DNA from: Candidatus Staskawiczbacteria bacterium
GTDB lineage: Bacteria; Patescibacteriota; Minisyncoccia; Minisyncoccales; Staskawiczbacteraceae
Assembly: GCA_026395175.1 (NCBI GenBank)
Contig: JAPLZF010000015.1
Coordinates: forward strand, 21,066 to 85,065
Length of the DNA stretch: 64,000 bases
Reading direction: 5' to 3'
In this document: one piece after another, positions 6,073 through 52,329 of the stretch
Layout of the letters: every line of letters begins with the position of its first letter
Numbering within the stretch: position 1 is the stretch's first letter
Notes under the pieces: generated by a model
Told to the model about the DNA's origin: nothing
What the model saw: the letters and a program-made list of their open reading frames with translations, nothing else
Databases searched by the model: none
Translations under genes and position numbers: made by a program

Positions 6073-6086
6073 TATTCTGTTTTATA

Positions 6087-7430: not shown

Positions 7431-7448
7431 AATATTATTTTTTATTCA

Positions 7449-10433: not shown

Positions 10434-10434
10434 A

Positions 10435-12534: not shown

Positions 12535-12632
12535 ATTTTTAATTTATTTAACCACAAATCAGACATTTTTTCAAATTTCTAAAACAAAAATGCCGGTACA
12601 TTTAAGCCGGTTGTTTTTGTTAAAAATTATCG

Positions 12633-13016: not shown

Positions 13017-13083
13017 AGATTTACCCCACTCGACACCAGATCTCTTGTCTAGGGCCCTTGTGGTTGCTCAAAATCCCCGTATT

Positions 13084-31135: not shown

Positions 31136-31185
31136 TTTTCTATTATACCACAAAAATAAAAACGGGACACAACCAAAAACCCGAC

Positions 31186-31210
31186 CAACTCGGGTTAATT
31201 GGTTAGAAAT
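31186..31210. repeat. 25-nt conserved box, copy 1 (upstream of the amidohydrolase promoter)
   Basis: CAACTCGGGTTAATTGGTTAGAAAT is identical to 40565-40589. Confidence 0.8.
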
Positions 31211-31329
31211 GATGGCTGTCCTAATTTTCATTTTCTTGACCCCATTTTCTGCAAAAGCAAACCTCTTCTTATAGGCGATGAAGATGATAAAATTATCTTT
31301 TTCATTATAATATTAAAATTATTATTTTT

Positions 31330-31902
31330 TTAAGGACATGTATCTACGTCTTTAAGTCTAGGATATAGAATAACATCTCTAATATTATCTCTACATAGAC
31401 TCCATGTTATAAAACGCTCTATCCCTAAACCGAAACCAGATGTTGTTTGATAGTTTGGAATTTTTCTTAAATTTATATACCACTCGTAAGGCTTACGATC
31501 TATTTTTTGTCTTGATAGCGAATCTATCATTTCTTTAGCATTGTCTTGTCTTTGCCCTGATCCGACAACTTCCCCGCCAAAAGAATTTTTTATTATCGGA
31601 GGAAAAATAAGATCGGCGTTTATGGTTTTATTAAAATCTAAGGGATCCGGCTTCTGATAAAATGCCACTGTATCGCGATCATATTTTTTAATCCAAAAAG
31701 GCGCCTTGAAATTAAAAATTTCTGCTGGTTTAACTCCAGGACAATTTATAAGTCTTAACAATTTTTTTGTTGAAACTGAAAATAGCATGGTTATACCTTT
31801 ACCCCTATATTCAGACGGAACATCAATAACAAAATCTCTCAATCTAATTTTCTCCCGTATCTTGTAATTGATAGAACTCTCGTCGATTGATAATTCTTTC
31901 AT
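31330..31902 (-). CDS. Truncated class II aaRS-like protein (AsnRS/AspRS C-terminal catalytic part only)
   Basis: 190 aa. GGEVVGSGQRQDN...YEWYINLRK...TSGFGLGIERFITW...NIRDVILYPR matches the motif 3 region of AsnRS/AspRS. There is no anticodon-binding domain and no motif 1 or 2. Confidence 0.6.
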   Translation of the reverse strand: MKELSIDESSINYKIREKIRLRDFVIDVPSEYRGKGITMLFSVSTKKLLRLINCPGVKPAEIFNFKAPFWIKKYDRDTVAFYQKPDPLDFNKTINADLIFPPIIKNSFGGEVVGSGQRQDNAKEMIDSLSRQKIDRKPYEWYINLRKIPNYQTTSGFGLGIERFITWSLCRDNIRDVILYPRLKDVDTCP

Positions 31903-31952: not shown

Positions 31953-32453
31953 TTAATGAATCTGGGGCCGCTGAGCCTCAAATACTTTTTTATCGTAATT
32001 CCACCCCACCGTTATATCATCTGAAACACCTTTCCCATTATCAGTAAGAAGATACAAAACAAAATTATCACTTTTGATACTGACAAATTTATATCCGTAA
32101 AACTTATCTTTCACTATTTCCTGATCTTTACCTTTGGTGTTGAAAAAACCATCGCTATTTATTTTGTAAATGACGATTTTTTTTCCATCTACTTCCTTCG
32201 TTATATACAACGAAGTAAATACATCTTTATTAAGATAAGTTACATACGCATCTCCAAGAATTGAACCGTCTGGAGTTTTAAGCGTGCTTACTAGAGTTAT
32301 ATCGCTTTTATTAAAAGTTATTTTTTTATGCGTATCGATGCGTTGGACCAAATAAAGCAAAGCAGTAATAACAATTAAAGCTACTACTAATATGGAAATA
32401 AATTTAATTATTGTTTTAGTCATATAAGTTATCATTGAGTGATTTTTTGCCAA
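31953..32453 (-). CDS. Membrane-anchored immunity-protein candidate for the NlpC/P60 toxin
   Basis: 166 aa with an N-terminal TM. It lies immediately downstream of, and overlapping, the orphan Rhs-CT gene. No motif recognised. Confidence 0.4.
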   Translation of the reverse strand: MAKNHSMITYMTKTIIKFISILVVALIVITALLYLVQRIDTHKKITFNKSDITLVSTLKTPDGSILGDAYVTYLNKDVFTSLYITKEVDGKKIVIYKINSDGFFNTKGKDQEIVKDKFYGYKFVSIKSDNFVLYLLTDNGKGVSDDITVGWNYDKKVFEAQRPQIH

Positions 32454-33445
32454 TCTAATTGTCTGTGATAGATAGATCCTCCTTGTTTGTAAGTGTAATC
32501 ATCTTGGTAATTGGTTGGAGTTAATAGCACTCCTGTATCGGGATTTAATGGATTAACCATTGAACCATTGCCAACATTAGTTGTTACGTGATCTATTCTA
32601 CCATCTGAGGTGTAATCATAAAATGTCACCGTGCCCCTACTCCTACTATCTGATGAAACTGAATAATTTCTATATAAGTCATCCGCACCGCGATCTCCAA
32701 AGTTCGGATTTGCACTTTGTCTAATACCATAGATAACTGCCCCAGAACAATCAACAGAATCAGGTCCGTTGGCTCCCCACACATAAGGTTTTCCAACAAG
32801 TTTCTCTTCAATTGCAGCATATTTGCCATTATAATATTGTGTCGTTTGGATTTTTGGCGACTGATGAGATGAATAAGAAGGTTGTGCAATTGATATACTA
32901 CTTGGACTCTTATTTTGCAAATGGTTCGGAGATATACTGCCATCGCCTCCGCCAATTACAGTTGACAGTAATGATTTCCACGCAGATACAAGAGAACTAA
33001 TAATAGAAACCAACGATGATGCTCGACCACTCGGATCACTCCGATTGATAGGGTTGTCATTCGCGTATGAGTAACTATTCAAAGCTTGCGGGTTTGCCAA
33101 AAGCGTTTGCTGGTCTTGTCCAGTAAGTTGTTTTATTTGATTTTCATCGCCAATCGCGAGAGCGACCGGGTCTTCGCTTGTGAATCTTGCCAGCGCGGAG
33201 TTGTAGTATCTTGCGTTGAGGTAATTTAATCCTGTGTCGGCGTCAAACTCCTGTCCAATGTATTTCCTCTGCTCTGAAAAGGCAGAGGACCCTGAGCCCG
33301 TCGAAGGGTGCGTATCAATTCTAATTGCTCCAAATGGGAAGTAATCTAAAGTTTCAGCAATAGTGCCGGCGGAGTCGGTCATCACGCTGGATGAGTTAAG
33401 ATTTTCTGCGTGGTTATAATATATTTTAGCATTAATTCCTATCAT
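32432..33445 (-). CDS. Orphan Rhs C-terminal cassette: Rhs core end plus NlpC/P60 peptidoglycan hydrolase toxin domain
   Basis: AKIYYN..LNSSSVMTDSAG...DYFPFG...QRKYIGQEFDADTGLNYLNARYYNSALARF.SEDP parallels the main Rhs. The C-terminus GKPYVWGANGPDSVDCSGAVIYG has the NlpC/P60 catalytic Cys. The start is set to MIGIN (33445), 6 nt after TGGTATAAT. Confidence 0.75.
   Translation of the reverse strand: MIGINAKIYYNHAENLNSSSVMTDSAGTIAETLDYFPFGAIRIDTHPSTGSGSSAFSEQRKYIGQEFDADTGLNYLNARYYNSALARFTSEDPVALAIGDENQIKQLTGQDQQTLLANPQALNSYSYANDNPINRSDPSGRASSLVSIISSLVSAWKSLLSTVIGGGDGSISPNHLQNKSPSSISIAQPSYSSHQSPKIQTTQYYNGKYAAIEEKLVGKPYVWGANGPDSVDCSGAVIYGIRQSANPNFGDRGADDLYRNYSVSSDSRSRGTVTFYDYTSDGRIDHVTTNVGNGSMVNPLNPDTGVLLTPTNYQDDYTYKQGGSIYHRQLDWQKITQ
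33193..33266. repeat. 74-bp segment identical to 34721-34794 (Rhs core-end recombination substrate)
   Basis: AATCTTGCCAGCGCGGAGTTGTAGTATCTTGCGTTGAGGTAATTTAATCCTGTGTCGGCGTCAAACTCCTGTCC occurs in both copies, and the flanks are homologous but diverged. Confidence 0.85.
33288..33310. repeat. Short GC-rich repeat, copy in the orphan Rhs cassette (encodes HPSTGSGS)
   Basis: GGACCCTGAGCCCGTCGAAGGGTG. It is absent from the paralogous position of the main Rhs, which reads DNKTSSFTEQRKY. Confidence 0.7.
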
Positions 33446-33489
33446 AAAACAATTATACCACACAGCGACTAATTATCACAAAAAGGCTC

Positions 33490-33951
33490 CTACCCCCTTT
33501 TATGACTTTTTTCATTTCTATTTTGCTTGTATATTTGATTTAATTGGTAATCATCCAGATTTTTTATTTCTTCAAGGATTTTTTCTATCCTTTCTTTGTA
33601 TTGTTCGGGAAATGCAACAATAAAAGTTTGTATTAAATCTTTATCTTTAGTGTACGGATTTGAATGAGAGATATCATTAAGTATTTTCAACAATATAAGC
33701 ACGTCTTTATCTCCAAGGTTAGGGACGTCTTCATGATAAATAACAAAATGTTTATTTGATAACCAGCTAAAATCCGATAACAATTCATCGAAATAATCCC
33801 AATTATCACAAAAATTTCCAGGAAATTTAAAAACATCTGCATAGCTCTGTAATAGCTCTTTTTTAGAAGCTATGCCGGTGGGAATAATACCCACATAGGC
33901 ATCTGGATTTTTATTGAAATCTTCAAGTTTTCCGAATTTAATGTTTACCAT
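33490..33951 (-). CDS. Barstar-like RNase inhibitor (immunity protein)
   Basis: 153 aa directly downstream of the Rhs toxin. FCDNWDYFDELLSD resembles the barstar NLDALWDCLTG helix region. Confidence 0.65.
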   Translation of the reverse strand: MVNIKFGKLEDFNKNPDAYVGIIPTGIASKKELLQSYADVFKFPGNFCDNWDYFDELLSDFSWLSNKHFVIYHEDVPNLGDKDVLILLKILNDISHSNPYTKDKDLIQTFIVAFPEQYKERIEKILEEIKNLDDYQLNQIYKQNRNEKSHKRG

Positions 33952-33955
33952 ATAT

Positions 33956-36900
33956 TTAGCGTTTAATTGTAGTTATACTTTGGTAATGGTCTGATGTATA
34001 ATACATATCGCCGTTTTTAGTGCCCACTAACATTCTTTCTGCTGTATTGGATGGTGCTCCAGAATTATTTACCGGATATTCTAAATATTGATTCCCGTTA
34101 TTGTAATTTAATTGTGAATGACCTTCGGCATTTCGATAAAATTCAGTTAATCCTGTGTTTTTATTAATTTTAGGTCCTATCTTTCCAGATTCTATCGCGT
34201 CAACAGTCGGCTGAAGATTAACCTTGCCTTGATATATACTCTTTCCAAACTGTTTTACGCTAGTGTCTATTTCTAAACTATTCTCTGCCGACAATGTCTT
34301 ACCTAACCCGCCTAATAATTTAGCTGTTGTTCCAGCTCCAATCCATCCACCCAACATTTCTCCAGAATTGTAATCAAACTGGTCTTTACTAATCTTCCCA
34401 GAAACACAATCTTGATAGTTTTTATATGATCCATAAACTGTCGCCGCACCTGCCATAGAAACCACGCCCACTCCAATACCTGTAGCAATTGCAGCAGGAA
34501 TCTCTATTGGTAAGGCTGTGATAGCACCAGCAACTAATACAGTTACAGCACCTGCATACACAACACCCCTTGCAGATCCTTGCACAAAAGTTTTCCAGCT
34601 TTGTCCTGTCGGATCGCTTAATGTTATCGGGTTGTTGCGTGAATAGCTGTAATAATTGAGTTGTTGCGGGTCGGCGAGAAACTTTTCGGGGTTGTCTCGT
34701 GATGCTGAATCTTCGGAGATAAATCTTGCCAGCGCGGAGTTGTAGTATCTTGCGTTGAGGTAATTTAATCCTGTGTCGGCGTCAAACTCCTGTCCGATGT
34801 ATTTTCTCTGTTCTGTGAAAGAACTTGTTTTGTTGTCTATGCGGATTGCGCCGAATGGGAAATAATCCATTGTTTCTGCCAGCGCACCAGCCGAGTCAGT
34901 CATCACGCTGGAAGAATTGAGCGAGTCGGTTGCGTTGTAGTAAATCTTGGCAACTGCTCCTGTTCCATTTATTGTAGCAATATTTTGGTTATTTGCAAAG
35001 ATGTGCTTTACAATAGATGTTGGGTTTTGGGTGGTTGGTGTTAGATATGAAGCGTTATAGTTTTGTGTTGGGTAATATGTCGAGCTCGCAAGCGAAGATC
35101 CTAAACCTGGCGAAGGATTAGTTGTAATTTTAATTCTCTGGCCGTTTGCGTCGTAGGCGTAAGTTGTGGTTGTGTTGGCAGAAATGTTTGTGGCAGAAAC
35201 AAGCCGGTTGTTGTAATCATAAGTGTACGAATTTATTCCGTCGCTTGTGATATTTCCATTTTGGTCGTACTGAAAATTATTAGTTCCCGGGTCGCCGATG
35301 GTAAAAGTTTTTGGCGAATTAGAAAGCAAAAAGTTTGCTCCGCCGGCGGAATCTATGCCGTAAATGTAAATCGTGTGCGGTTTGCCGTCTTGGTATTTTG
35401 CCGGAATTGAATAAATAAAGCGGTGGTTTCCGGTGTAAGCCGGAAAAACTTTTGTAACATCTGGGCTTGCGGTGTTGGCGGAAACTCGAGAAAGAAATGT
35501 TCCTGTTCCTATTGCGCCGTCTATGTAAATATCAACAGAAATTGATGTGTTTGGAACATCTGGGTCGGCTGTCCAGCCATAAGCTATCCAGCCGGCATAA
35601 GTGGTGCTCATAACGCCGTCAATGTATCCAACAGGAACGCGGTTTGAAGCCAAAATTATTTTGGCAATCGGCTCGGCAGATTTGCCGACCACAACTGTTT
35701 GCGAATTAGTTTTGGTTGCAGAAGTTTTTGTGACAGCGTCTGGATTTGCGTAAGAAGAACCTGCGTTATTTAAATTTCCTTTGTAATCGTAAGTTGTTGT
35801 TGTGTCGTTTAATTTTTGAGACAGCATATTTCCCAAAGCGTCGTAAGTAAAACTCTGAGTGTATGCTTGCTGGCCCGAGGCAACATTTGTTGCAGTTGAC
35901 GAAAGCAAGCGATACAAATCGTCATAAGTGTAAGCAACTGTCTTTTTAGAATCAGTGGCTGAATTGTCAACAAACTGAATAATATTGCCTACGTTGTCAT
36001 AGATATAAGCAAGATTTTGCAGTTGCGTTCCTGTGGCGGTGTTTGTAATTTTGTTTGCCAGCCGGTAAAGCTTTGCAGAATCGTAAGTGTTGGTGGAAAT
36101 TGCGCCATTGGCAAAACTTTCTGTAGTAATTTGCTCAAGCGGCGAATAATCAAAGTTTGAGATTACATTAGCAAACGCTGTGTCAGTTGATTCTTTTTTT
36201 TGTATCTGGTCAAGAAGACCGGCTGGATTGTAAATGTTTTTAATTTGCGAATTGTCAGGATTTATAATTAAAATTTGGTTTCCTTGGCGGTCAAAATTGT
36301 ACTGGGTTATGAAAGTTTTTGTGTCAATTATTTTTGTGTCTTTGGTTATGTTTCCCAAAGATGAATATTCATATTGCTCGGTTTGCTGAGCAGAAACGCT
36401 TTTGCACAAAAGTCCTTTTCCGTTTGGACAAGCGTCGTAAATAAAAGTTGCCTCCACGCCGGCTTTGCCGGCATAATCTTCGCTGGTTTTTCTGTTTAGA
36501 GCGTCAAAATTATAATTAATTGTCTGATTTTTCGCGTCAGTCAAACTGATTAAATTTCCAACATTGTCATAAGTGTAATTCCAAACACCAAAAACAGAAT
36601 CCGTAGGATTGTGCAAATCTTCTGCGATTAATTTTCTGTCCAAACCGTCGTAAGAAAAATTTCTGACATTTCCCAAAGCATCTGTGATGTTGATTAAGTC
36701 AGAAAGGCCGTTATACGAATAATAAGTGGAATAAATATTTGAAGCATTGTGTTCGCCAACTTGAATTAAATTCCCATAAGCGTCTTCATAAAAGTCTTTT
36801 GTTTTTCCGTTGGCATCGGTAACGGAAGTTTTCCAATTGTTGTAAGCTGTGATTGTCGCGCCAACAGAATTTATTGATGACACGGCGCGGTTTAATGCAT

Positions 36901-39900
36901 CATATGCGTAGCTTGTGTAAAGCGTAAAATCTTGGGTTGGCAAAGTCCTGCCAAAGCTGTTTGAAAAATATGGCAAAGATTCTTTCTGCAATTGTCCAAG
37001 ATTATTGTAAATATAATCTTTTGTCTCAAAATTATTATTCTCCGCAGATTTTTTTGTTTGGATAATTCTGCCTAATCCATCGTAATAATTATAACTATTA
37101 ACAGCCGTAGAAGAATCTAAATAATCAGTTTGCTGAACGCTCAAAGCACCAGAAGTGTCGGTGTAAATATAAAATGTTTTTTGAACCAATGTTGCCGGAT
37201 TTGCTTGGTCGGGCTGTTCTGTTTTTAAAATTCTTCCGAAGCCGTCGTAAGTGTTTTTAAAAACATTTCCGTTGGCATCTGTGGTTTGCGCAATTTTTCC
37301 GTTGGCGTAATTGTAAATATATTGCGTTGTCTGGCTTAAAGCATTGGTAATTATTGCCGGATAAAGATTATAGCTGTCGTAAGAAAAATTAGTTGCGTTT
37401 CCATTGGCATCTTTGCTTTGAGAAACAAGCCCATAATTATTGTAAACTTTTTGCGAGCTGGCGTAATTTGAATTATTTATCCAATCCTCTTCTTTTGTCT
37501 GGTTTCCCAAACTGACGCTGCCCAATGGCAGATTGTCGTAATAATATCGGCTTTCTTTGATTTTATTATTATTTTGTCCGCTGACAATTATGCCAGACGG
37601 ATAACCAACAACATTGCCACCGGCAGCGTAACTGATGTTAGTGATATATTTGTCATTGCCAACATCTGTGAAGCTTCCGTCATTATTTGCCAAAACTTGT
37701 CCCCATTCTATTTTTTGAGTTTGGTTGCCGTTGCTATTGTCATAGCTATAACTTTCTGTTTTGTCTTTGTGATTTATTGTTCCGTCATAATCTTCTTTTG
37801 TTGCTTGAATTAATTTTGCAAATCCGGCGCTGCCTGCCAAGTTATAACTATCCCATTTGTTTATATTCACCTGATAAAGTTTGCCGGAATTGTCATATTG
37901 CTCTGTCCTGTAAGCTTTTCCTATTTTAAAATAATTGTCCTGATATTGCCCGCGGGATGAATCGTTTCCTGAGCCGGTATTGTAAAAAGTTTTTGTCACA
38001 TTTTGCGCGCTATCAATTTGGTCTATTTCCGCAAAACCGGCAAGATTCCTGTCGAAAGGCCCTTTGTAATAATATGTCCCGCCAAAATACTGGTAATTTT
38101 CCGAAGAAACAATATTATTTACAGGATCTGTGGCATTAATTTTAGAAACAGTTTGAACCGACAAAGGCAATTTTGGATTGGGCAAATTGCCCAAACTATT
38201 GTTGTAAAGAGTTGACGGGGCATAAGAAATATTTATTGTTTCTCCGGTGTTTAACGTAATTGAATTCAACAAGTCATTGCCGGCTGGACTGAGAACCAAG
38301 TTGCTTGTTTGCTGAAAATATATTTCATTAGGGTTGTCGCCGGAAAAATTTCCGAGCGCAAATAATTTGCCGGCGTATGCGCTGCCTCCAACAGAAAAAT
38401 TATAAGGCAAGCTGACATCAAAAGGCTCAGCCCAGCCTTTGCCTGTGTTTAGAAATACTCTTTGAGCTGTAACCGTTTGGCCTGGCAGCGGCTGATATGG
38501 AATGCTGTCAACAACTTGCGTGTTGCTTGTGGCTTGAACCAAATCCACCAAGCCGTCGCCGTTGTAATCAATTACCCTTACTCCGAGTTCATGATTGCCA
38601 CCATAACCGGCGCCTTGGATATAATCACGAAATGAAAATAATGTTGGCGGAGCATAGTTGTCGCTTAAATAAAAATTTCCCAAACCGTCGCCCAGCCAAG
38701 TTTTTTGGACAGTTTCGTCATATGGATAATTATTTACTTCCTGATACTGATATTGCCCAATTTCATGATAACTGGCAATTATATCCAAAATTCCATCGCC
38801 ATTTACATCTGTGGAAATTATTCCGGCTACCGAATTGCCGTCTGCGTTTGGAAAATAAATTTTGTTGGATCCGGTTGAATTATAAGTGTATTCCGGCGGA
38901 CTATAACTTTTTTTCACAAAACTACTGCCGGTGTTTGAATAGTAAGCAGAATCTACGCTGGTGCCGGCAAAAAAATCCGGCAAGCCGTCGCCATTTATAT
39001 CAAAAAAATTAGCGTTGGGAAAAGATCCGTTAGTGCAAATTGAACCAATGCCGGGAATTTTAAACTGCCACGAAAAATCTTGGTTCCAGCCCGAACCTGT
39101 ATTTATAAATATTGCCGGTCCTTGGCAAGGAATAATTAAATCCGGCAAGCCGTCGCCGTTTATATCTGTAAAAAAATGAGTTGTTTGTAGAAAAGATGGA
39201 GAAGCAGAAACAAATATTGCCGGCGGCTGGTAAGATGGAGATTCTGTCCATCCGTTTTTTCCATTATTCAAGTAAGCTTTCTGCAGGACAAAACCGGACG
39301 ATGAATAAGAAATTAAAACATCGGTTAATCCGTCGCCGTTTAAATCCGCAAATTCGGCGTAGTCGGAAAATTGCTTAATGTCTGAAGGCAAGTCATAAGT
39401 TGTTTTGCCCGCGTATAAATCATTGGCATAATTAAAACTTGTTTTTGGCTTTGCAATTATATTCCCGCCGGCGGTTTTTCCTGATTCTGTTATGCTTTGA
39501 AGAATTGAACGGCTGCCGTTGCTTCCTGTCTCATAAGCTAAATCATATTTATTAACCCAATTTCCGCTTGCAGAAGCTGTTATTTGGCTTATGCGATAAT
39601 TAGTTGTTGCCAAAAATCCAGCGCCGTAGCTTGCGGTGTTGTCGGCTCTTGCCTCGGTTGCAAAACTAACTTCAAAAATTCCGCCGGTGTTTCCGTTGCC
39701 GGTGTATCTTATTGCCAAAGGATAAATTTGACCCGCGTCTTTAAAATAAGAATAAGAAATATAATTATTGTTGGCGTCTCTCACTTCCTGCAGCATCCAT
39801 TTGTAAACATTGCCAGGATTTTGCGGGTCGTTTTGCTGAGACGCGCTGTTATAACCAAACTTGTATTGCGTGCCGTCTTTGGCAACCACCAGCCATTGAT

Positions 39901-40510
39901 TGTTTGAAAAAGTATATTTGTTAAAACTGCCGTTTTCTGTTCTGGCAACAAAAGATGAACTATCAACAGTTGAAAGTTCACCGTCAAGCGAAGAATAAAA
40001 ATAATTTGAACTATACAGCGAATCTGTTCCGGTTTTATTCAACCGCTGAATATAAGGAATGTTCAGCTCCCAACCGTAGCCAAAAATGCCGGCTTGCTCA
40101 TTTTGACTGCTGTTATACGACAATGCAATATCGGGCTGTAAATTATTCCTGCCCGGAGGAATGGAAATTGGATAACTATAATTCAAAGCTCCTGTGTTTT
40201 TGTCTATTTCCGGCAGTTTTTGAGTCATCGAAGAAACAGAAGCTGGCGGTTGCGCTGGATTGCTCTGGTCTAAAGCTTTGCTCTCTGCAGTTTGGTCGGA
40301 CGGCGTAACTGCTTGGATGTTACTTTGCAAAGCATCGGCTGGCACCCCATCAGCCATCGGCGTGGTTGTGTCTAATGCCGGCACCGGCAAGACTGGCGTA
40401 TCTGAAGTGTCAGAAACAAAAACATCGTCTGATGTTTCGGCAAACGCAGGGGCAATTGGCGTTATTAAAAATGCAAAGATTAAAAAAGTTGCTGTAATCT
40501 TATAAGCCAT
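33956..40510 (-). CDS. Rhs/YD-repeat polymorphic toxin (SpvB-like N-terminus, FG-GAP/VCBS repeats, YD shell, barnase-like RNase C-terminus)
   Basis: The start is set to MAYKITATFLIFAFLITPIAPAFA (signal peptide). The SpvB-like motif is ALNYSYPISIPPGRNNLQPDIALSYNS..GYGWELN. There are four D.NGDG(L)(T/P/V)D repeats and dozens of YD repeats (Y.YD..G). The core end is DYFPFG..RYYNSALARF. A hydrophobic pre-toxin segment follows. The C-terminus FYRNAEGHS..YLEYPV..ERMLVG..GDMYYTSDHYQSITTIKR parallels barnase ..FSNREGKLP..WREADI..DRILYS..LIYKTTDHYQTFTKIR. Confidence 0.9.
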   Translation of the reverse strand: MAYKITATFLIFAFLITPIAPAFAETSDDVFVSDTSDTPVLPVPALDTTTPMADGVPADALQSNIQAVTPSDQTAESKALDQSNPAQPPASVSSMTQKLPEIDKNTGALNYSYPISIPPGRNNLQPDIALSYNSSQNEQAGIFGYGWELNIPYIQRLNKTGTDSLYSSNYFYSSLDGELSTVDSSSFVARTENGSFNKYTFSNNQWLVVAKDGTQYKFGYNSASQQNDPQNPGNVYKWMLQEVRDANNNYISYSYFKDAGQIYPLAIRYTGNGNTGGIFEVSFATEARADNTASYGAGFLATTNYRISQITASASGNWVNKYDLAYETGSNGSRSILQSITESGKTAGGNIIAKPKTSFNYANDLYAGKTTYDLPSDIKQFSDYAEFADLNGDGLTDVLISYSSSGFVLQKAYLNNGKNGWTESPSYQPPAIFVSASPSFLQTTHFFTDINGDGLPDLIIPCQGPAIFINTGSGWNQDFSWQFKIPGIGSICTNGSFPNANFFDINGDGLPDFFAGTSVDSAYYSNTGSSFVKKSYSPPEYTYNSTGSNKIYFPNADGNSVAGIISTDVNGDGILDIIASYHEIGQYQYQEVNNYPYDETVQKTWLGDGLGNFYLSDNYAPPTLFSFRDYIQGAGYGGNHELGVRVIDYNGDGLVDLVQATSNTQVVDSIPYQPLPGQTVTAQRVFLNTGKGWAEPFDVSLPYNFSVGGSAYAGKLFALGNFSGDNPNEIYFQQTSNLVLSPAGNDLLNSITLNTGETINISYAPSTLYNNSLGNLPNPKLPLSVQTVSKINATDPVNNIVSSENYQYFGGTYYYKGPFDRNLAGFAEIDQIDSAQNVTKTFYNTGSGNDSSRGQYQDNYFKIGKAYRTEQYDNSGKLYQVNINKWDSYNLAGSAGFAKLIQATKEDYDGTINHKDKTESYSYDNSNGNQTQKIEWGQVLANNDGSFTDVGNDKYITNISYAAGGNVVGYPSGIIVSGQNNNKIKESRYYYDNLPLGSVSLGNQTKEEDWINNSNYASSQKVYNNYGLVSQSKDANGNATNFSYDSYNLYPAIITNALSQTTQYIYNYANGKIAQTTDANGNVFKNTYDGFGRILKTEQPDQANPATLVQKTFYIYTDTSGALSVQQTDYLDSSTAVNSYNYYDGLGRIIQTKKSAENNNFETKDYIYNNLGQLQKESLPYFSNSFGRTLPTQDFTLYTSYAYDALNRAVSSINSVGATITAYNNWKTSVTDANGKTKDFYEDAYGNLIQVGEHNASNIYSTYYSYNGLSDLINITDALGNVRNFSYDGLDRKLIAEDLHNPTDSVFGVWNYTYDNVGNLISLTDAKNQTINYNFDALNRKTSEDYAGKAGVEATFIYDACPNGKGLLCKSVSAQQTEQYEYSSLGNITKDTKIIDTKTFITQYNFDRQGNQILIINPDNSQIKNIYNPAGLLDQIQKKESTDTAFANVISNFDYSPLEQITTESFANGAISTNTYDSAKLYRLANKITNTATGTQLQNLAYIYDNVGNIIQFVDNSATDSKKTVAYTYDDLYRLLSSTATNVASGQQAYTQSFTYDALGNMLSQKLNDTTTTYDYKGNLNNAGSSYANPDAVTKTSATKTNSQTVVVGKSAEPIAKIILASNRVPVGYIDGVMSTTYAGWIAYGWTADPDVPNTSISVDIYIDGAIGTGTFLSRVSANTASPDVTKVFPAYTGNHRFIYSIPAKYQDGKPHTIYIYGIDSAGGANFLLSNSPKTFTIGDPGTNNFQYDQNGNITSDGINSYTYDYNNRLVSATNISANTTTTYAYDANGQRIKITTNPSPGLGSSLASSTYYPTQNYNASYLTPTTQNPTSIVKHIFANNQNIATINGTGAVAKIYYNATDSLNSSSVMTDSAGALAETMDYFPFGAIRIDNKTSSFTEQRKYIGQEFDADTGLNYLNARYYNSALARFISEDSASRDNPEKFLADPQQLNYYSYSRNNPITLSDPTGQSWKTFVQGSARGVVYAGAVTVLVAGAITALPIEIPAAIATGIGVGVVSMAGAATVYGSYKNYQDCVSGKISKDQFDYNSGEMLGGWIGAGTTAKLLGGLGKTLSAENSLEIDTSVKQFGKSIYQGKVNLQPTVDAIESGKIGPKINKNTGLTEFYRNAEGHSQLNYNNGNQYLEYPVNNSGAPSNTAERMLVGTKNGDMYYTSDHYQSITTIKR
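34721..34794. repeat. 74-bp segment identical to 33193-33266
   Basis: See 33193-33266. Confidence 0.85.
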
Positions 40511-40517
40511 ATGTTTG

Positions 40518-40546
40518 ATAATGGCACAATCGTCTTGCAATGTCAA
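40518..40546 (-). promoter_or_regulatory. Promoter of the large Rhs gene (TTGACA-N17-CATTAT), apparently leaderless
   Basis: The minus strand reads TTGACATTGCAAGACGATTGTGCCATTATCAAACATATG. The -10 ends 7 nt before the ATG at 40510. Confidence 0.5.
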
Positions 40547-40564
40547 ATATTTTAAAAAACCTCT

Positions 40565-40589
40565 CAACTCGGGTTAATTGGTTAGAAAT
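40565..40589. repeat. 25-nt conserved box, copy 2 (upstream of the Rhs promoter)
   Basis: CAACTCGGGTTAATTGGTTAGAAAT is identical to 31186-31210. Confidence 0.8.
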
Positions 40590-40612
40590 TACGCATGACT
40601 ATATTTACGCTT

Positions 40613-41155
40613 CTATTTTATATTACAACTTTCAACTTGGGCTGTTTTTATGTCCTCGTTTGTTTGAGTAATTTTAATGCTATCAAGCATTCTTTTAATA
40701 AGAGTTTCTTGGGCTGAGGAAAAATAAAGAAAATTATAGTATGCAAACCTGACTATACGATTACCCATAGGAATATCATAAAAATCAACTGACTTATAAT
40801 CTCCAGAACCATTAAGATGATTAATGCTGGCGTTATAACCGTTAAAAGTAGTATCTGACCAATCAGGTTCTAAGGGATCCAAATAAGAAAAACCTACGCT
40901 AAAAAAATTATTTTTATCACTCATTTTTATCTTCATCGACAGTTCATTTTTGGTAGAAGTGTTTATAAATGAATTAGGATAATACACCTGGAACATCGCA
41001 TTTCCGCTTTTTACTTGTAGACAATTAGATAATTTTTCTTGTTGCTGGATAACAGGATTTTTTTTATGTTGAGGAAAAAAAATAAACAAACATCCTACAA
41101 ATAATAACATTGCCACTATTAAAAATAAAAATCTAAATATTTTTTGGTCAAGCAT
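40613..41155 (-). CDS. Membrane-anchored immunity-protein candidate for the CHAP toxin
   Basis: 180 aa with an N-terminal TM (FLFLIVAMLLFVGCLFIFF). It starts 7 nt after the stop of the Rhs-CHAP gene. Confidence 0.4.
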   Translation of the reverse strand: MLDQKIFRFLFLIVAMLLFVGCLFIFFPQHKKNPVIQQQEKLSNCLQVKSGNAMFQVYYPNSFINTSTKNELSMKIKMSDKNNFFSVGFSYLDPLEPDWSDTTFNGYNASINHLNGSGDYKSVDFYDIPMGNRIVRFAYYNFLYFSSAQETLIKRMLDSIKITQTNEDIKTAQVESCNIK

Positions 41156-41162
41156 ATATTCT

Positions 41163-42509
41163 TTATTTACTAATTGATTTTTTTGGTTGCAGAGCGCCTA
41201 AGCCGGGCCAATTAAAAGTCGCCGGAATGGATTGCTGGCTCGAGTAGCGGGTCCAAGAATCAACGTGAATTGGGCTATTTTTTGAACGGTCAGAAACAGT
41301 GTAACCACCATCTTTGTTTTGAGTAAAATTTTGAGCGAACAATGCCTTATCAGGTCTTGCATTCTGTTCTAATGTATAAATTGTCCCGCCATTATTATAC
41401 GCATTAGCTACCACTTCTACAATTGTTCCCACATGACCATAGCTCTGGTCATCGCTTGTCCATGTCATAAGGTCATTTTCTTGAGGCAACACAGAACTGC
41501 CATTTTTATAAACCGCCATCGAACCGGAATTTTTATTATTCTCCATCACTCTATTGACTTCCTTTTGATTGCCATAATTAATTGCACCCTCTTTTCCTAT
41601 TCCAGAAATGTTTATATCATATTGAGCCTTATAAAATTTTTGAACAAAAGTAGTACATTGCTGAAAATTATTTTCATCAAGAGGTCCGTATTCTCCACGG
41701 CTATTTACGTTCACACCTCTATAACTGGCTATTGCTTCCCCATAACTATAACCATAAATCCCTCCTAATGGTAAATACGGCTGTATTTCTGAAACTTTCT
41801 TGCCACTTGGATCGCTCAAAGTTATTGGATTATTCTGAGCGTAGCTATAAAGATTCAGCTGTTGCGGGTCGGCAAGGAACTTTTCAGGGTTATCTCTTGA
41901 TACTGGGTCTTCTGACAAAAACTTTGCTATACTGCTATTGTAATACCTTGCATTGAGATAGTCCAACCCTGTGGATGAATCGAAGTCCTGACCGAGGAAT
42001 TTCTTTTGTTGCGGGTTTTGACCTGTTGCTGTGTTGTCTAATCTGATTTGCCCGAAAGGAAAATAGTCAATTGTTTCTGCGGGTTTGTTGTCTATCGATA
42101 GAACATTTGTAATACTGCCTTGGTGGTCTGTTAAGACCGGCTGGAGAACAGCTGTTTGACCGGTTCCGCTGATTGTGGCAACCAATGTTCCGTTGGCATT
42201 AACATACTTTGTGATTTTTTCTGGAGATTTGTTGCCTTTGGAGTCGGTTGTATATGAAACGCTGTAATCTTTTGAGGGGTAATAGGTGGTTTCCGAACTG
42301 CCATCTGAATTTTGGACAACCATTTTTATTCGCTGACCTTGCGGGTCGTATGAGTAAGTTGTGACTGCGCCGGTGGATGTGTTTGTGGCAGAGGTAAGGC
42401 GATTGTTATAGTCATAGGTGTAAGTGGTGGCGAGCGCGGGCGCTATTGGCTGCAATGCAAAAATGAGAGCAAACGCCGCCACAATCATTTTGCGCAAAAC
42501 TTTACCCAT
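41163..42509 (-). CDS. Short secreted Rhs-repeat protein with a C-terminal CHAP amidase/peptidase toxin domain
   Basis: 448 aa with a signal peptide. YTYDYNNRLTSATN..YSYDPQGQRIK are YD repeats. The core end is DYFPFG...RYYNSSIAKFLSEDP. The CHAP-like Cys is in QQCTTFVQKFY and the His in YGHVGTIVEV. Confidence 0.75.
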   Translation of the reverse strand: MGKVLRKMIVAAFALIFALQPIAPALATTYTYDYNNRLTSATNTSTGAVTTYSYDPQGQRIKMVVQNSDGSSETTYYPSKDYSVSYTTDSKGNKSPEKITKYVNANGTLVATISGTGQTAVLQPVLTDHQGSITNVLSIDNKPAETIDYFPFGQIRLDNTATGQNPQQKKFLGQDFDSSTGLDYLNARYYNSSIAKFLSEDPVSRDNPEKFLADPQQLNLYSYAQNNPITLSDPSGKKVSEIQPYLPLGGIYGYSYGEAIASYRGVNVNSRGEYGPLDENNFQQCTTFVQKFYKAQYDINISGIGKEGAINYGNQKEVNRVMENNKNSGSMAVYKNGSSVLPQENDLMTWTSDDQSYGHVGTIVEVVANAYNNGGTIYTLEQNARPDKALFAQNFTQNKDGGYTVSDRSKNSPIHVDSWTRYSSQQSIPATFNWPGLGALQPKKSISK

Positions 42510-42556: not shown

Positions 42557-43771
42557 TTAAAATTTAATTTTCTTCCTGATTTCTACAAGTGTATCAACTA
42601 AATAATCTATTTGTTCAAAAGTGTGGTCGCAGGTTAAAGTTGTTCTCAGCCTTGCTTGTTTTTGAGGAACAGCCGGCCATCGGGCTGCCGGAATAAATAT
42701 ATTTCTTTCCAGCAATAAGTTGCTCGCTTGCATTGCTTTTTTTTCGTCTCCGATAATAATTGGCATTATTTGAGTGTTGGAAGCGCCTGTATTAAAATTC
42801 AATTCTTTTAATTTGCCCCTCAAATATTCGGCGTTCTCAAGCAATTTTTTCCTGCGCCAAGGCTCTTTTTCCGCAATTTCAATGGCTTTTATTAACCCGT
42901 AAACAACCGGCGGAGCAATGGGAGCTGTAAAAATAAAAGAATCTGAAGCAATTTTTAAATAATCAATTAATATTTTTCTTCCCACAATAAATCCGCCGAC
43001 TCCGCCAAATGATTTTGTAAAAGTTCCCATGACAACGTCAACTTTGTTTTCAAGTCCAAAATAATCTTCCAATCCCCTGCCATTTTTTCCCAGAATTCCG
43101 GTTGCATGCGCGTCATCTAAATATACCAGCGCATTGTATTTTTTTGCCAAGTCCAAAATATCAGGCAAAGGCGCAGTATCACCGTCCATGCTGAAAACTC
43201 CGTCGGTAACTATCATTTTTCTGGCTTTAACCGGATATTTGCTTAATTTATTTTTCAAGTCGCCAACATCAGTATGTTTATAAATTTCTTTTTGAGCTCC
43301 GGAAAGCCTAATCCCGGCTATAATGCTTGCATGGTTATATTCATCGCTGAATATAATAGTATCTTTTTCCCTTTCAATTTTTCCGCCCAAAAGACTTTTT
43401 ATCGAAGGCTTAAAAACATTTGCTATTGCCGGTATGGCGCCGGAATTAGCCATATACCCGGACACAAAAGATATTCCAGCCTCGCGATGTTTGAATTCGG
43501 CTATCTTTTTTTCCAATTGCTGATGTATTTCAATATTGCCGGTAAGCAATCTGGCGCTTCCATTTCCAATTCCCCATTTTTTTACGCCTTCAACAGCGGC
43601 CGCCACCACTCTTTCGTCATGCATTAGGCCAAGATAATTGTTTGTGGCAAACAATAAAACTTTTTTACCATTTACAATGGTTTCTGGAGCATGTGGAGAC
43701 GACACCACCGGCGACTCCGGATAAAGGCCGAACTTTTTTATATAATTTAACGCTTTTTCTATTCTTTTCAT
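42557..43771 (-). CDS. Alpha-oxoamine synthase family PLP enzyme (BioF/KBL/serine-palmitoyltransferase-like)
   Basis: 404 aa. Contains NNYLGL, DEYNHASII, SMDGD, DDAHATG and the PLP lysine in GTFTKSFG. Confidence 0.85.
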   Translation of the reverse strand: MKRIEKALNYIKKFGLYPESPVVSSPHAPETIVNGKKVLLFATNNYLGLMHDERVVAAAVEGVKKWGIGNGSARLLTGNIEIHQQLEKKIAEFKHREAGISFVSGYMANSGAIPAIANVFKPSIKSLLGGKIEREKDTIIFSDEYNHASIIAGIRLSGAQKEIYKHTDVGDLKNKLSKYPVKARKMIVTDGVFSMDGDTAPLPDILDLAKKYNALVYLDDAHATGILGKNGRGLEDYFGLENKVDVVMGTFTKSFGGVGGFIVGRKILIDYLKIASDSFIFTAPIAPPVVYGLIKAIEIAEKEPWRRKKLLENAEYLRGKLKELNFNTGASNTQIMPIIIGDEKKAMQASNLLLERNIFIPAARWPAVPQKQARLRTTLTCDHTFEQIDYLVDTLVEIRKKIKF

Positions 43772-43784
43772 TTTATTTTATTTT

Positions 43785-47638: not shown

Positions 47639-49180
47639 ATGCTAACAAAAAAACAAACCCAAACATTAGACTATATCAAAAAATACATAGAAGAAAAAAA
47701 CTATTCCCCCACGCTTGAAGAGATAAGAGACAATTTTGGTCTCTCCTCGGTTTCCACCATACACGAACACGTGCAAACTCTTAAAGAAAAGGGATATTTA
47801 GAAAAAATAGAAAATCAACCAAGGTCAATCGAATTATCCCAAAACAAAAAATTTGAATTGTTAGAAATCCCTCTGCTTGGGATTATCGCTGCCGGACAAC
47901 CCATAGAGGCGATTGAAATTCCAGAAGAAACAATAACTATACCAAAAAATGACGTTGGAAAATTTGGAAAATTTTATGCCTTGAAAGTTCGAGGAGACAG
48001 CATGATAGACGAAGGAATTTTCGACGGCGATATAGTTGTGCTCAGAGAACAAAAAATTGCTGAAGACGGCCAAACCGTTGTTGCAATTATTGACGACAAC
48101 CAAGCAACGCTTAAAAAAATATATCGGGAGAAAAATAAATTTCGTTTGCAACCGGCAAATCAAAATCTTTTACCATTTTTCAGAACTAATGTGGAAATTC
48201 GCGGTGTAGTTGTAAAAGTTATACGAAACCTTGAAATCAACAGAGAAAATACACTAGAAAACAGGAAAAAAGTATTTTTAGAAAGAATAAGAAGCAAAAA
48301 TCCAGACAGTTCTAATAAATACAAAAGAGTCGTTGAATCGCCGATAAGATACGCTGGCGGAAAAAGTTTAGGAGTTGGATTTGTTGCAGAACTTTTACCA
48401 GATAATATAAATAGGATAATATCGCCATTTTTTGGCGGAGGATCAATTGAAATCGCTTTCAACAAATATCTTGGACTAGAGGTTGTCGGATATGATATTT
48501 TTGATATTTTGGTCAATTATTGGAATATCCAAATAAACAAGCCAAAAGCATTATTCAAAAGATTGTCAGAATTAGAGCCAAACGAAAAAACCTACAAAGA
48601 TATAAAAGAAAGATTGAAAAAACATTGGAAGAAAGAAAAAAAGATGGCTCCGATGGACTTAGCTGTTCATTATTATTTTAATCATAATCTATCATATGGC
48701 CCTGGATTTTTAGGCTGGCCATCTAGTATTTACCTTAAAAAAGAACGATATGAAACAACCATTGAGAAAGTCCGCGATTTTTCTGTTAACAATTTTGAAG
48801 TTAAATGCGCCAGCTTTGAAGAAGCTTTTGAAAAATACCCAAATGATTTTTTCTATTGCGACCCGCCATATTTGCTGGGCCATGACTCAAAAATGTTTAG
48901 AGGAATTTATCCAATGAGAAATATTCCTGTCCATCATAATGGATTTCCTCACGAAAAATTATTAGATTTACTAAAAAAACACAAAGGTGGCTTTGTGCTT
49001 TCTTACAACAATTGCCAAACTATAAGAGATTGGTATAAAGATTACAAACATTATTTCCCAACGTGGCAATATACAATGGGACAAGGAGAAACTAGAATAG
49101 GTAAAAACAGGATAGAAAACGGAGACAACCACATAAAACATTCCCACGAAATAATTATCTTCTGCCCTCCAGCAATTTAA
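47639..49180 (+). CDS. Fusion protein: full-length LexA (wHTH plus S24 self-cleaving domain) joined to a Dam-family (D12 class) N6-adenine DNA methyltransferase
   Basis: One uninterrupted 513-aa ORF. The LexA part has LTKKQ..LDYIKKYI..SPTLEEI, the cleavage site IIAAGQP, the catalytic Ser in VRGDSM, the Lys in QATLKKI, and ends ..RGVVVKVIRNL. A basic linker of about 35 aa follows. The MTase part has SPIRYAGGK, PFFGGGS (motif I) and FYCDPPY (motif IV). Confidence 0.85.
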   Translation: MLTKKQTQTLDYIKKYIEEKNYSPTLEEIRDNFGLSSVSTIHEHVQTLKEKGYLEKIENQPRSIELSQNKKFELLEIPLLGIIAAGQPIEAIEIPEETITIPKNDVGKFGKFYALKVRGDSMIDEGIFDGDIVVLREQKIAEDGQTVVAIIDDNQATLKKIYREKNKFRLQPANQNLLPFFRTNVEIRGVVVKVIRNLEINRENTLENRKKVFLERIRSKNPDSSNKYKRVVESPIRYAGGKSLGVGFVAELLPDNINRIISPFFGGGSIEIAFNKYLGLEVVGYDIFDILVNYWNIQINKPKALFKRLSELEPNEKTYKDIKERLKKHWKKEKKMAPMDLAVHYYFNHNLSYGPGFLGWPSSIYLKKERYETTIEKVRDFSVNNFEVKCASFEEAFEKYPNDFFYCDPPYLLGHDSKMFRGIYPMRNIPVHHNGFPHEKLLDLLKKHKGGFVLSYNNCQTIRDWYKDYKHYFPTWQYTMGQGETRIGKNRIENGDNHIKHSHEIIIFCPPAI

Positions 49181-51530: not shown

Positions 51531-51534
51531 AAAT

Positions 51535-52329
51535 TTAATGCTTAGAATATTTTTCAACCTCGCCGATAAAATCAAATATTTTTTTGAACAATTCCAATCT
51601 GTGCTCGTCGACGGTCATTACATGATAATGGCTTTGAAGCCAATAAATTTTTTTGAAGGAAGAATCCAAATGCTCATAAATATATGTTGCGCTTTTGGGA
51701 TGGATTACCGGGTCGGAATCTGAATGAGCCACAAGCGCCGGAATTTTTATTTTATTCAAATTGGGAATTGTTTCGTTTTTTACAAAGCTGAAAAACTGGC
51801 GCAAATTTTTGCTGGGAATCACAGGATAAGTCACCTCATCCATCATGTCAATATAATCTGTTTTATAAACCCGGGGCGGCTTGTGATAATATTTTTTAAA
51901 CAATCCATAAGTGTAAAGCCTGCAAAGCAAAAACTTTTGATATCTTAAAAAAATCGGCGCGCCCAAAGTTATAATTCCTTCCTGCTCGTTGCCAGTTTTT
52001 TTTATCAGCCAAAATCCCAAATTAGAGCCGAAAGAATCTCCTATTATAAAAATTTTTTCAGATATTTTTTTCAGTTCCAGATAAGCGTCCATGGCAGATT
52101 TGGTCCAATCTTTTGGCGAAGATTTCATAAAATCTTCCGGAGAAGTTCCATGTCCGGCTATTAAGGGAGCCAGCACATTGAATCCCCTGTCGGCCATAAA
52201 AACGCTCAATTCCCTGAATTCAGCCGGAGTGCTGGAAAATCCGTGGAGCATTAAAACTCCTGTTTTTGATTTTTTATTTATAAAAATTTCTTCTGCTCCT
52301 TTCATTTTTGATTTTTTATATAATTTCAA
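51535..52329 (-). CDS. Alpha/beta hydrolase (carboxylesterase/monoacylglycerol-lipase-like)
   Basis: 264 aa. HGF is the oxyanion region, the nucleophile elbow is GDSFGS, and a C-terminal His lies in SHYHVMT. Confidence 0.75.
   Translation of the reverse strand: MKLYKKSKMKGAEEIFINKKSKTGVLMLHGFSSTPAEFRELSVFMADRGFNVLAPLIAGHGTSPEDFMKSSPKDWTKSAMDAYLELKKISEKIFIIGDSFGSNLGFWLIKKTGNEQEGIITLGAPIFLRYQKFLLCRLYTYGLFKKYYHKPPRVYKTDYIDMMDEVTYPVIPSKNLRQFFSFVKNETIPNLNKIKIPALVAHSDSDPVIHPKSATYIYEHLDSSFKKIYWLQSHYHVMTVDEHRLELFKKIFDFIGEVEKYSKH

Follow-up and report, generated by a model that had tools for sequence, protein, structure and literature searches.

We analysed a stretch of 64,000 nt (the window) of the 87.5-kb contig JAPLZF010000015.1, from a metagenome-assembled genome (MAG) of Candidatus Staskawiczbacteria, which belongs to the Parcubacteria group of the Patescibacteria, and found in it a cluster of genes of the Rhs/YD (tyrosine-aspartate repeat) family. 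An original prediction made from the sequence had placed three Rhs modules here, with RNase, NlpC/P60 and CHAP ends, each followed by a candidate immunity gene. Calls of open reading frames (ORFs), Pfam and the profile TIGR03696 located the three modules where they had been expected, and the order of toxin and immunity candidate held for all three. All genes of the locus lie on the minus strand in a co-directional run of ORFs (Table 1). In the direction of transcription they encode a short Rhs protein (mini-Rhs), a 180-aa membrane-anchored protein, a full-length Rhs protein (main Rhs), a Barstar-family protein, a third Rhs module (orphan) and a 166-aa membrane-anchored protein. Unitigs 100% identical to the window were found in several sequencing runs. 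Related loci and contigs are cited below by L numbers and related proteins by P numbers; exact look-ups of P0005 and P0154 gave no record.

The Rhs-associated core (TIGR03696) scored 62-72 bits in all three modules against a curated cut-off of 32.5, and tblastn of the window returned exactly three core-ends. Each core closes with a PxxxxDPxG motif (PITLSDPTG in the main, PITLSDPSG in the mini and PINRSDPSG in the orphan module), and the aspartate-bearing columns of D..TGL.YL.ARYY....RF.S.D are invariant in the three-way alignment; cleavage of the core is predicted. Pfam matched the RNase, NlpC/P60 and CHAP ends, and in profiles and alignments the catalytic residues, on whose presence the original prediction had been staked, are retained in all three tips. 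The core-ends are old and under purifying selection, with saturated dS (~1.8-1.9): dS was 1.85 and dN/dS 0.14 between main and orphan, and 1.90 and 0.22 between main and mini. The three modules are not equivalent, as signal peptides occur only in the main and mini genes.

Table 1. Positions of the Rhs locus, its parts and neighbouring features in the window.
Feature	Position	Strand	Remarks
Mini-Rhs	41163-42509	-	448 aa; signal peptide aa 1-27 (cut between ALA and TT), core-end aa 28-236, 212-aa tip
Conserved signal peptide, mini-Rhs	42429-42509
CHAP domain of mini-Rhs, aa 281-383	41361-41669	-	Pfam
180-aa membrane-anchored protein	40613-41155	-	NCBI hypothetical protein NTY81_02510
53-nt repeat, copy A	40554-40606	-	just upstream of promoter-like site and main Rhs start
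Promoter-like site, main Rhs	40518-40546	-	extended -10
Main Rhs	33956-40510	-	2184 aa; 2203 aa if the upstream TTG is taken as start
Conserved signal peptide, main Rhs	40439-40510
FG-GAP beta-propeller of main Rhs	38411-39358	-	Pfam and repeat family D2, five copies
Beta-rich insert in shell, ~aa 1610-1745 (~135 aa)	35276-35683	-	just upstream of mini-Rhs homology start
74-nt repeat, main copy	34722-34795	-	perfect direct repeat
Hydrophobic pre-toxin module, aa 1970-2074	34289-34603	-	two transmembrane (TM)-like helices, P..IP turn, motif
Barnase/RNase Sa-type (N1/T1) RNase domain	33959-34261	-	Pfam PF00545 and RNase Sa3 alignment
Barstar-family protein	33490-33951	-	153 aa
Promoter-like site, orphan	33452-33481	-	extended -10
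Orphan module	32432-33463	-	343 aa
74-nt repeat, orphan copy	33183-33256	-	perfect direct repeat
NlpC/P60 domain of orphan	32531-32794	-	Pfam
166-aa membrane-anchored protein	31953-32453	-	NCBI NTY81_02490, annotated 156 aa
AsnRS-like ORF	31330-31902	-	190 aa
53-nt repeat, copy B	31175-31227	-	terminator-like hairpin
Lipid-handling cluster	42557-46745, 49794-52329	-	includes acyl-CoA synthetase (49794-51575) and alpha/beta hydrolase (51535-52329)
LexA-methyltransferase ORF	47639-49180	+	513 aa
Mobile-looking region	2696-14502	-	probably includes a restriction-modification island

The main Rhs protein consists, in order, of a signal peptide, a linker, an SpvB domain (E 4e-14), an FG-GAP propeller (FG-GAP_3, E 3e-17, four scored stretches), a TcdB_toxin_midN domain (E 1e-13), a YD shell (RHS_repeat, E 6e-26), a beta-rich insert, the core and a 215-aa tip that follows the closing motif at aa 1961-1969. 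The SpvB-like N-terminus, YD shell, hydrophobic pre-toxin segment and barnase-like end that had been read from this 2184-aa protein were all recovered; the four DxNGDG repeats counted earlier are corrected to five clear blades and a degenerate sixth. The signal peptide (aa 1-24; N-terminus MAYKITATFLIFAFLITPIAPAFA followed by ETSDD) is Sec-like by our heuristic, with an AXA site cut between AFA and ET, and leads into an acidic, Pro/Thr-rich linker. Among solved structures, the N-terminal 1000 aa are closest in sequence to YenB (E 7e-7) and TcdB1 (E 8e-5), both TcB subunits, the core-end to RhsA of a type VI secretion system (T6SS; 7q97, E 5e-15) and the shell to Tse5 (8cp6, E 1e-7). The main Rhs is thus a natural single-chain TcB-TcC-like fusion. 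Pfam gave no match in it to TcdB_toxin_midC (PF12255) at E <= 0.01, to PAAR or to a cell-wall-binding domain.

The insert between the YD shell and the core-end had no Pfam match, no PDB sequence match and no counterpart in the related loci, and a single-sequence AlphaFold2 (AF2) model was all-beta but unreliable (pLDDT 44) and too poor for a structure search. Full-length relatives carry other domains, of adhesin or lectin type, at the same position, namely Big_2 and I-set in L007, Big_2 in P0009, Ig_Rha78A_N in P0087 and two Laminin_G_3 stretches in P0055, while the shortest full-length relative (P0075) has none. From this pattern we infer that surface or targeting domains are inserted preferentially at this position and could replace the receptor-binding role of TcA; the insert of the main Rhs is a candidate for a domain that lies at the surface or binds a receptor. 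In three independent runs, the unitigs all stop at 35607, within the insert, and the next contig begins at 35330, which suggests strain-level variation or a repeat in this domain within natural populations.

The tip of the main Rhs ends in an RNase. Pfam Ribonuclease (PF00545) matched with E 1e-6 and 29.7 bits against a cut-off of 24, and the last ~100 aa align to RNase Sa3 (1mgr, E 1.5e-5), with the catalytic residues in place as Glu in YLEY, Arg in AERML and His in SDHY. The next gene begins 5 nt after the main Rhs stop and belongs to the Barstar family (E 8e-12, 45.4 bits against a cut-off of 23.4); its product has no signal peptide and is weakly similar to that of the Barstar gene behind an orphan with PT-TG and RNase domains in L013. 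Family membership makes it the immunity candidate for the RNase. The pair resembles barnase-barstar and RNase Sa-barstar in its N1/T1 fold signature, its catalytic Glu/Arg/His and the adjacent Barstar-family gene, and differs from them in that the RNase forms the tip of a 2184-aa Rhs protein, where a hydrophobic module of two helices precedes it, and that the Barstar homologue has a C-terminal extension of ~55 aa.

This hydrophobic module lies between the processing site and the RNase, and its helices are followed by the motif Y.NYQ...SG.ISKDQFDYN.G.LLGG. It is common to the main Rhs, P0152 (one of the L013 orphans, in which it precedes a diverged RNase), P0153 and P0114 (a signal-peptide mini-Rhs), hence four instances with four different C-terminal domains, and the similarity among these proteins ends where the module ends. 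No family was matched by the tails of P0153 and P0114. In position and modularity the module is like the PT-TG (PF14449) and glycine-zipper 2TM pre-toxin domains, the former of which occurs ahead of an RNase in the related locus L013; unlike these it has no Pfam match, has a motif of its own (Y.NYQ...SGQISKDQFDYNSG.LLGG) and was found in four instances only. When TM-like segments were scored as a 19-residue Kyte-Doolittle mean >= 1.6, they fell in tips bearing an RNase or tRNase (the main Rhs of the window, the PT-TG region of the first L013 orphan, and P0092, where a weak glycine-zipper-2TM match of E 0.016, under the Pfam cut-off, precedes colicin E5). In P0115, a hydrophobic stretch ahead of the RNase was seen by eye. 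None of the CHAP and NlpC/P60 tips examined had such a segment, with maxima of 0.25-1.41. We infer that the module helps the RNase cross the cytoplasmic membrane of a target.

The orphan comprises a core-end fragment up to PINRSDPSG and a 198-aa tip. It begins mid-repeat, 26 nt past the stop of the Barstar-family gene, and is not exportable as it stands, since it has no signal peptide. Its NlpC/P60 domain had been recognised before, and only the start at 33445 needed adjustment, the frame being open from a GTG at 33463 rather than from that ATG. NLPC_P60 (PF00877) matched with E 1e-10 and 42 bits against a cut-off of 23, and in an alignment of the tip to 7cfl (E 2.6e-13), a wall hydrolase of Clostridioides, the DCSG Cys and the His (DHV) are conserved; the third catalytic-site residue is Asn, whereas the template has His. 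Extended -10 promoter-like sites end 6-7 nt upstream of the ATGs of the main Rhs (40510) and the orphan (33445), which hints at leaderless transcripts and at separate expression of the orphan with its putative immunity partner.

The 166-aa protein behind the orphan, earlier read as a TM protein, has a single N-terminal hydrophobic helix, and its length is probably the 156 aa annotated by NCBI. It has four homologues. In both contexts where the upstream gene is visible, two independent metagenomic contig sets (L019-L021 and L022), the homologue begins 4 nt after an Rhs core-end with the same NlpC/P60 tip. The upstream proteins are 40-43% identical to the orphan overall and visibly more so across the hydrolase domain. 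That the L019 core is far more diverged than the tip indicates that the NlpC/P60 toxin and its partner travel together as a cassette, and this conserved linkage makes the 166-aa protein a candidate immunity protein for the tip. An AF2 model (pLDDT 76) shows a helix at residues 3-41 followed by an eight-strand beta domain; in two homologues (P0155, P0156), the beta ectodomain occurs twice in tandem behind a single membrane anchor. An N-terminal anchor is present in both proteins linked to the hydrolases, whereas the Barstar homologue lacks a signal peptide, and a cytoplasmic partner for the RNase with anchored partners for the hydrolases is the layout expected if each blocks its toxin where the toxin acts.

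A secreted mini-Rhs with a CHAP end followed by a 180-aa TM protein was the third element foreseen, and a signal peptide, Pfam and one hydrophobic helix agree with this. The mini-Rhs matched CHAP (PF05257) with E 1.6e-9 and 38.6 bits against a cut-off of 26, and RHS_repeat with E 1e-6. Its tip keeps the signature QC...GHVG...EQN, of which QC and GHVG align to the CHAP domain of trypanothione synthetase in a weak match (E 0.05). An exhaustive HMMER search with the 448-aa protein returned many proteins of 300-550 aa whose similarity to it starts at the signal peptide, extends over the core-end and is lost beyond it, and a signal-peptide-like N-terminus was scored heuristically in 23 of 88 representatives of short Rhs-core clusters (50% identity). 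Their tips include CHAP (P0005, P0013, P0014, P0015, P0019), an alpha/beta-hydrolase-like domain (P0070, similar to the L008 tip), colicin E5 (P0092), the hydrophobic module described above with a C-terminal domain of no matched family (P0114) and several others without assigned family. The mini-Rhs is thus, as far as sequences tell, a recurrent form and not a one-off. The junction between signal peptide and core varies among these proteins, with ~60 to 330 aa of core kept, and the mini-Rhs signal peptide (e.g. KLTIVALVFLFLFQPLAPVFA) is nearly the same as in the full-length L007, L009, L010, P0009 and P0022. The simplest history would be that full-length genes repeatedly lost their shell by internal deletion and that the shortened forms were retained.

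The signal peptides themselves (LVFLFxFQPxAPVFA, then Q after the cleavage site) are unusually conserved across full-length and mini forms, in proteins otherwise ~45% identical; they were seen in both signal-peptide genes of the window, in L007, L009 and L010, and in P0003, P0009, P0022 and P0025. This may reflect shared ancestry or a specialised sorting signal.

The 180-aa protein begins 8 nt after the mini-Rhs stop and has one N-terminal hydrophobic helix. A search of 5.8 billion proteins found only the protein itself; it matched no Pfam or NCBIfam family and was not similar to the 166-aa protein or to its positional analogue in L016, where a non-homologous 177-aa anchored protein lies behind a CHAP mini-Rhs. 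From its position and membrane anchor, it is a candidate immunity protein for the CHAP tip.

The main and orphan core-ends share a perfect direct repeat of 74 nt, spaced by 1539 nt, which encodes ...GQEFDADTGLNYLNARYYNSALARF. Upstream of this block the two genes are ~75-80% identical by eye, and the identity collapses directly after ...GCAAGATT (ARF). Beyond this breakpoint the main gene resembles the mini-Rhs (SRDNPEKFLADPQQLN), and the orphan continues into an alternative, longer linker (ALAIGDENQIKQLTGQDQQTLLANPQALN) that is also present in P0004, P0005 and P0026. The break in identity at the block, together with the switch to mini-Rhs likeness, indicates that the main gene is a mosaic with its breakpoint at the conserved block. 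Seventy-four identical nucleotides are long enough for RecA-type recombination, and the block could serve as a substrate for tip switching. Unitigs of other samples break at the 74-nt blocks, and contig L001 spans the main copy in the parental arrangement. A search of public JGI contigs for the main/orphan junction gave 0 matches; the parental control 41-mer also gave 0, the strain being absent from that collection.

A comparison of the locus across strains had been suggested, and we made it on related MAG loci, where the same Rhs type recurs at a syntenic site with other tips. In a scan of one genome per species, the same type was found at 39-51% identity in three H43 bins, a Saccharibacterium and another Staskawiczbacterium, all of them Patescibacteria MAGs, and a weak match of 29% occurred in a Saprospiraceae MAG. 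In L007 and L011, two genes directly precede the Rhs gene, one for an acyl-CoA synthetase and one for an alpha/beta hydrolase, that are 61-77% and 46-61% identical to those of the window, which shows that the site is chromosomal and syntenic and that the Rhs evolves faster than its flanks. As both genes abut the Rhs in these relatives, the window has ~9 kb of extra genes, among them the mini-Rhs pair. Orphan modules also occur in relatives, one in L007 and three in L013, including the one with PT-TG and RNase followed by a Barstar gene. An origin of the locus in a prophage or plasmid was rejected on account of the housekeeping flanks, the syntenic site in relatives and an unremarkable GC content.

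Behind homologous cores, the tips comprise RNase, colicin-E5 tRNase, CHAP, NlpC/P60, alpha/beta-hydrolase-like and phospholipase-like types and others without family. Their length after DPxG is 198-224 aa in the window and in L007, L008 and L009, 177-226 aa in all but one of the 26 full-length homologues that the exhaustive search returned (the odd one has a value of 31 aa, probably from a mis-picked motif) and 147-221 aa in the 23 signal-peptide mini-Rhs proteins. A near-constant tip size across unrelated enzymes fits a limit on cargo volume and free exchange of tips between scaffolds.

The original prediction had noted the lack of a T6SS or a Tc (toxin complex) A-component in view and proposed a genome-wide search for secretion systems. 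Our scan covered the 64-kb window, and among 47 ORFs it found no component of TcA, PAAR, T6SS, the type VII and type IV secretion systems or any other secretion system. The largest ORFs besides the main Rhs encode a helicase-like protein of 994 aa and a lipase of 986 aa, and no TcA-sized ORF was seen in the 17-29 kb of L007, L008, L009 and L016.

Judged by the features tested, the locus has what defines an Rhs polymorphic toxin system, its immunity genes being candidates. Like enterobacterial Rhs systems with orphan cassettes, it combines a YD shell, a TIGR03696 core with PxxxxDPxG and a variable C-terminal toxin; an immunity-type gene lies directly downstream, and an orphan cassette of core-end, toxin and candidate immunity gene shares a recombination-competent identical block with the main gene. 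Like Bacillus subtilis WapA, a Sec-dependent Rhs of a monoderm, the main protein has an N-terminal Sec signal peptide (here predicted). Unlike either, it has a TcB-like N-half (SpvB, propeller, TcdB-midN) that is neither linked to PAAR or VgrG nor equipped with wall-binding repeats, a pre-toxin module without Pfam family, an extra shell-less copy with signal peptide, and a home in the Patescibacteria. With TcdB2-TccC3 and YenB-YenC it shares the SpvB-like N-terminus, FG-GAP propeller, TcdB_toxin_midN, RHS repeats and a core with the aspartyl-protease motif; its tips of 198-224 aa are also similar in size to the hypervariable regions of Tc toxins, which in TcC are mostly 201-400 aa (PMC7861908). 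It departs from Tc BC components in being a single polypeptide with a signal peptide, with no TcA in the window or related loci and TcdB_toxin_midC not detected, in its antibacterial-type tips with candidate immunity genes, and in the lectin/Ig-like shell inserts of its relatives. Although RhsA of P. protegens (7q97) and Tse5 (8cp6) are its closest solved core-end and shell sequences, the window has no PAAR, prePAAR, VgrG or T6SS genes and export is predicted to be by Sec; Tse5 likewise has a hydrophobic, membrane-active tip, but here the hydrophobic segment precedes the RNase and is not the toxin itself. By analogy, the functionally closest systems would be Sec-dependent monoderm Rhs proteins such as WapA, the chassis here being of the Tc BC type.

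The TcdB/TcaC-type architecture is already listed in comparative-genomic surveys of polymorphic toxins. A large survey of Tc toxins left out Rhs proteins that are not encoded beside TcA or TcB (PMC7861908). For Patescibacteria, our literature search found nothing on Rhs beyond one sentence on a rhizosphere Saccharibacterium that encodes an Rhs/YD toxin of 2487 aa and, beside it, an immunity gene (PMC6031116).

Taken together, these features make it probable that this is a chromosomal Rhs/YD polymorphic toxin-immunity locus of Candidatus Staskawiczbacteria that serves antagonism against walled bacteria. Our working model is as follows. The main Rhs would be exported by Sec and fold outside the cell into a cocoon holding the cleaved tip, and it would reach target cells via the inserted surface domain, the propeller or both. 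After release, the hydrophobic module would insert into the target membrane and carry the RNase into the cytoplasm. The CHAP tip would need no membrane crossing and could hit exposed peptidoglycan after secretion and self-cleavage. The membrane-anchored proteins would shield the producer's own wall, and the Barstar homologue would neutralise the RNase in the cytoplasm. The orphan would be a stored cassette that enters the main gene by recombination across the 74-nt block, an event that would delete 1539 bp with the RNase tip and the Barstar gene and fuse the shell to the NlpC/P60 tip; meanwhile, its immunity gene would protect against kin carrying that tip.

Several points weigh against this model. 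Cocoon formation, autocleavage and membrane insertion are taken over from knowledge of the family, and a core fragment of 200 aa without shell, as in the mini-Rhs, may not fold or self-cleave. The 180-aa protein has no homologue, so that its immunity role is proposed from its position, and the AF2 model of the 166-aa protein matched no PDB structure, including those of known immunity proteins. The colicin-E5 tip of the L016 main Rhs carries only a weak Gly-rich segment, which means that a TM module does not accompany cytoplasmic toxins without exception. For the promoter-like sites, which match a consensus only, 63 were found against 40.5 expected. In addition, a TcA-like or other delivery partner could be encoded elsewhere in the genome, beyond the 64-kb window.

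The hydrolase modules might alternatively be tools with which an episymbiont opens the wall of its host for attachment or nutrients, the membrane proteins guarding the producer's wall during secretion. The original prediction had spoken of a putative episymbiont, and the organism is a Patescibacterium; two tips out of three are wall hydrolases, related loci again have mini-Rhs genes with CHAP, and the adjoining secreted LCAT-type lipase, alpha-oxoamine synthase, acyl-CoA synthetase and hydrolase would fit the scavenging of host lipids. We nevertheless consider this unlikely: RNase, tRNase, lipase-like and hydrolase tips swap on the same scaffold, which is a signature of toxins that diversify between bacteria, cognate proteins are linked to the tips in cassettes, no host of the lineage is known and nothing here ties the locus to host contact. 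A tool for host entry would fit the candidate dedicated immunity genes less well than antagonism against bacteria or kin. Less probable still is a role in eukaryotic intoxication, with the main Rhs as the BC part of a classical ABC (Tc) toxin whose TcA is encoded elsewhere. The SpvB, FG-GAP propeller and TcdB_toxin_midN domains and the matches to YenB and TcdB1 are what one would expect of such a protein, but neither the window nor the 17-29 kb stretches of the four related loci hold an ORF of TcA size, the main Rhs has a Sec signal peptide, which to our knowledge classical Tc subunits do not have, and the RNase tip with its adjacent Barstar-family gene and the sibling peptidoglycan-hydrolase tips point to bacterial targets. 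We regard this explanation as very improbable.

It is also conceivable that activity is confined to the main Rhs and its Barstar-family partner and that the mini-Rhs and orphan are non-functional debris left by deletions and displacements at a rearrangement hotspot. The orphan has no signal peptide and starts mid-repeat just behind the Barstar-family gene, the mini-Rhs lacks the shell that normally encloses a tip, and its signal peptide matches that of full-length relatives, as an internal deletion would give. Against this, both frames are intact, with core-end dN/dS of 0.14-0.22 at saturated dS, and signal-peptide mini-Rhs proteins with varied junctions and tips recur in the 23 cluster representatives. 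Moreover, one L016 mini-Rhs has its own downstream partner gene, and the orphan retains both a perfect 74-nt recombination handle and a conserved partner gene. Debris is therefore an improbable explanation, and antagonism against walled bacteria remains the reading we prefer.

Going further, one might propose that Patescibacteria run a self-contained, TcA-independent mode of Rhs delivery that combines a Sec-exported single-chain BC cocoon with a targeting insert, a two-helix module acting as an unaided translocator of nuclease tips and, as minimal secreted toxins, a parallel class of shell-less, self-cleaving mini-Rhs proteins with a signal peptide, 80-260 aa of core and a tip of ~200 aa. Here the targeting insert would be the unclassified beta domain, in relatives the lectin or Ig domains, and the two-helix module may be previously undescribed. 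We advance this scheme only tentatively and think it rather less likely than not to hold in full.

Outside the locus, the window carries genes for FtsZ, enolase, GAPDH, MreB, a GatA-like amidase and tRNA ligases and a patch of restriction-modification and integrase genes. The 190-aa ORF that comes next after the orphan cassette has matches to asparagine-tRNA ligase/AsnA-type class II synthetases only in their last ~120 residues, and could be what is left of a truncated gene or else a small paralogue. Two copies of a direct repeat of 53 nt (77% identical, with a 24-nt perfect core, TTTCTAACCAATTAACCCGAGTTG) occur in the window against 0.01 expected; they bracket a block of 9.4 kb from the main Rhs to the AsnRS-like fragment and could be a shared terminator or the footprint of a block insertion. 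The core of this repeat was absent from all fetched related loci.

On the other side, a lipid-handling cluster flanks the Rhs locus with a 986-aa secreted LCAT-type lipase, an alpha-oxoamine synthase like BioF/Kbl/serine palmitoyltransferase, an acyl-CoA synthetase and an alpha/beta hydrolase. The only plus-strand gene nearby encodes a complete LexA (DNA-binding domain and S24 peptidase) fused to a Dam-type D12 N6-adenine methyltransferase, and a 38%-identical piece lies downstream of the L007 Rhs locus. The more distant mobile-looking region encodes a tyrosine integrase, a PEP-CTERM-tailed protein of 307 aa, an S49 peptidase, DUF6998, DUF5681, a ResIII helicase-like protein of 994 aa and two N6/N4 DNA methylases.

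The locus is ordinary in kind and only mildly unusual in its host lineage and a few details of design; what it adds, namely the setting in the candidate phyla radiation (CPR), the recombination handle, the recurrent mini-Rhs, the shell inserts and the unclassified pre-toxin module, are leads and not demonstrated mechanisms. The genomes of CPR bacteria are tiny, the organisms are believed to live on other microbes, and little is known about how they fight or breach their neighbours. Here, one CPR lineage spends ~10 kb on a diversifying Rhs arsenal with matched candidate immunity genes, at a chromosomal site conserved in related MAGs. With neither TcA nor T6SS near the locus, it would offer a simple setting in which to ask how cargo leaves a cocoon, and how an RNase gets through a membrane, when no dedicated injector takes part, a question that also arises for WapA-type toxins. 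Two parts of such a system are small and can be cloned, namely the hydrophobic module ahead of the toxin and the mini-Rhs proteins.

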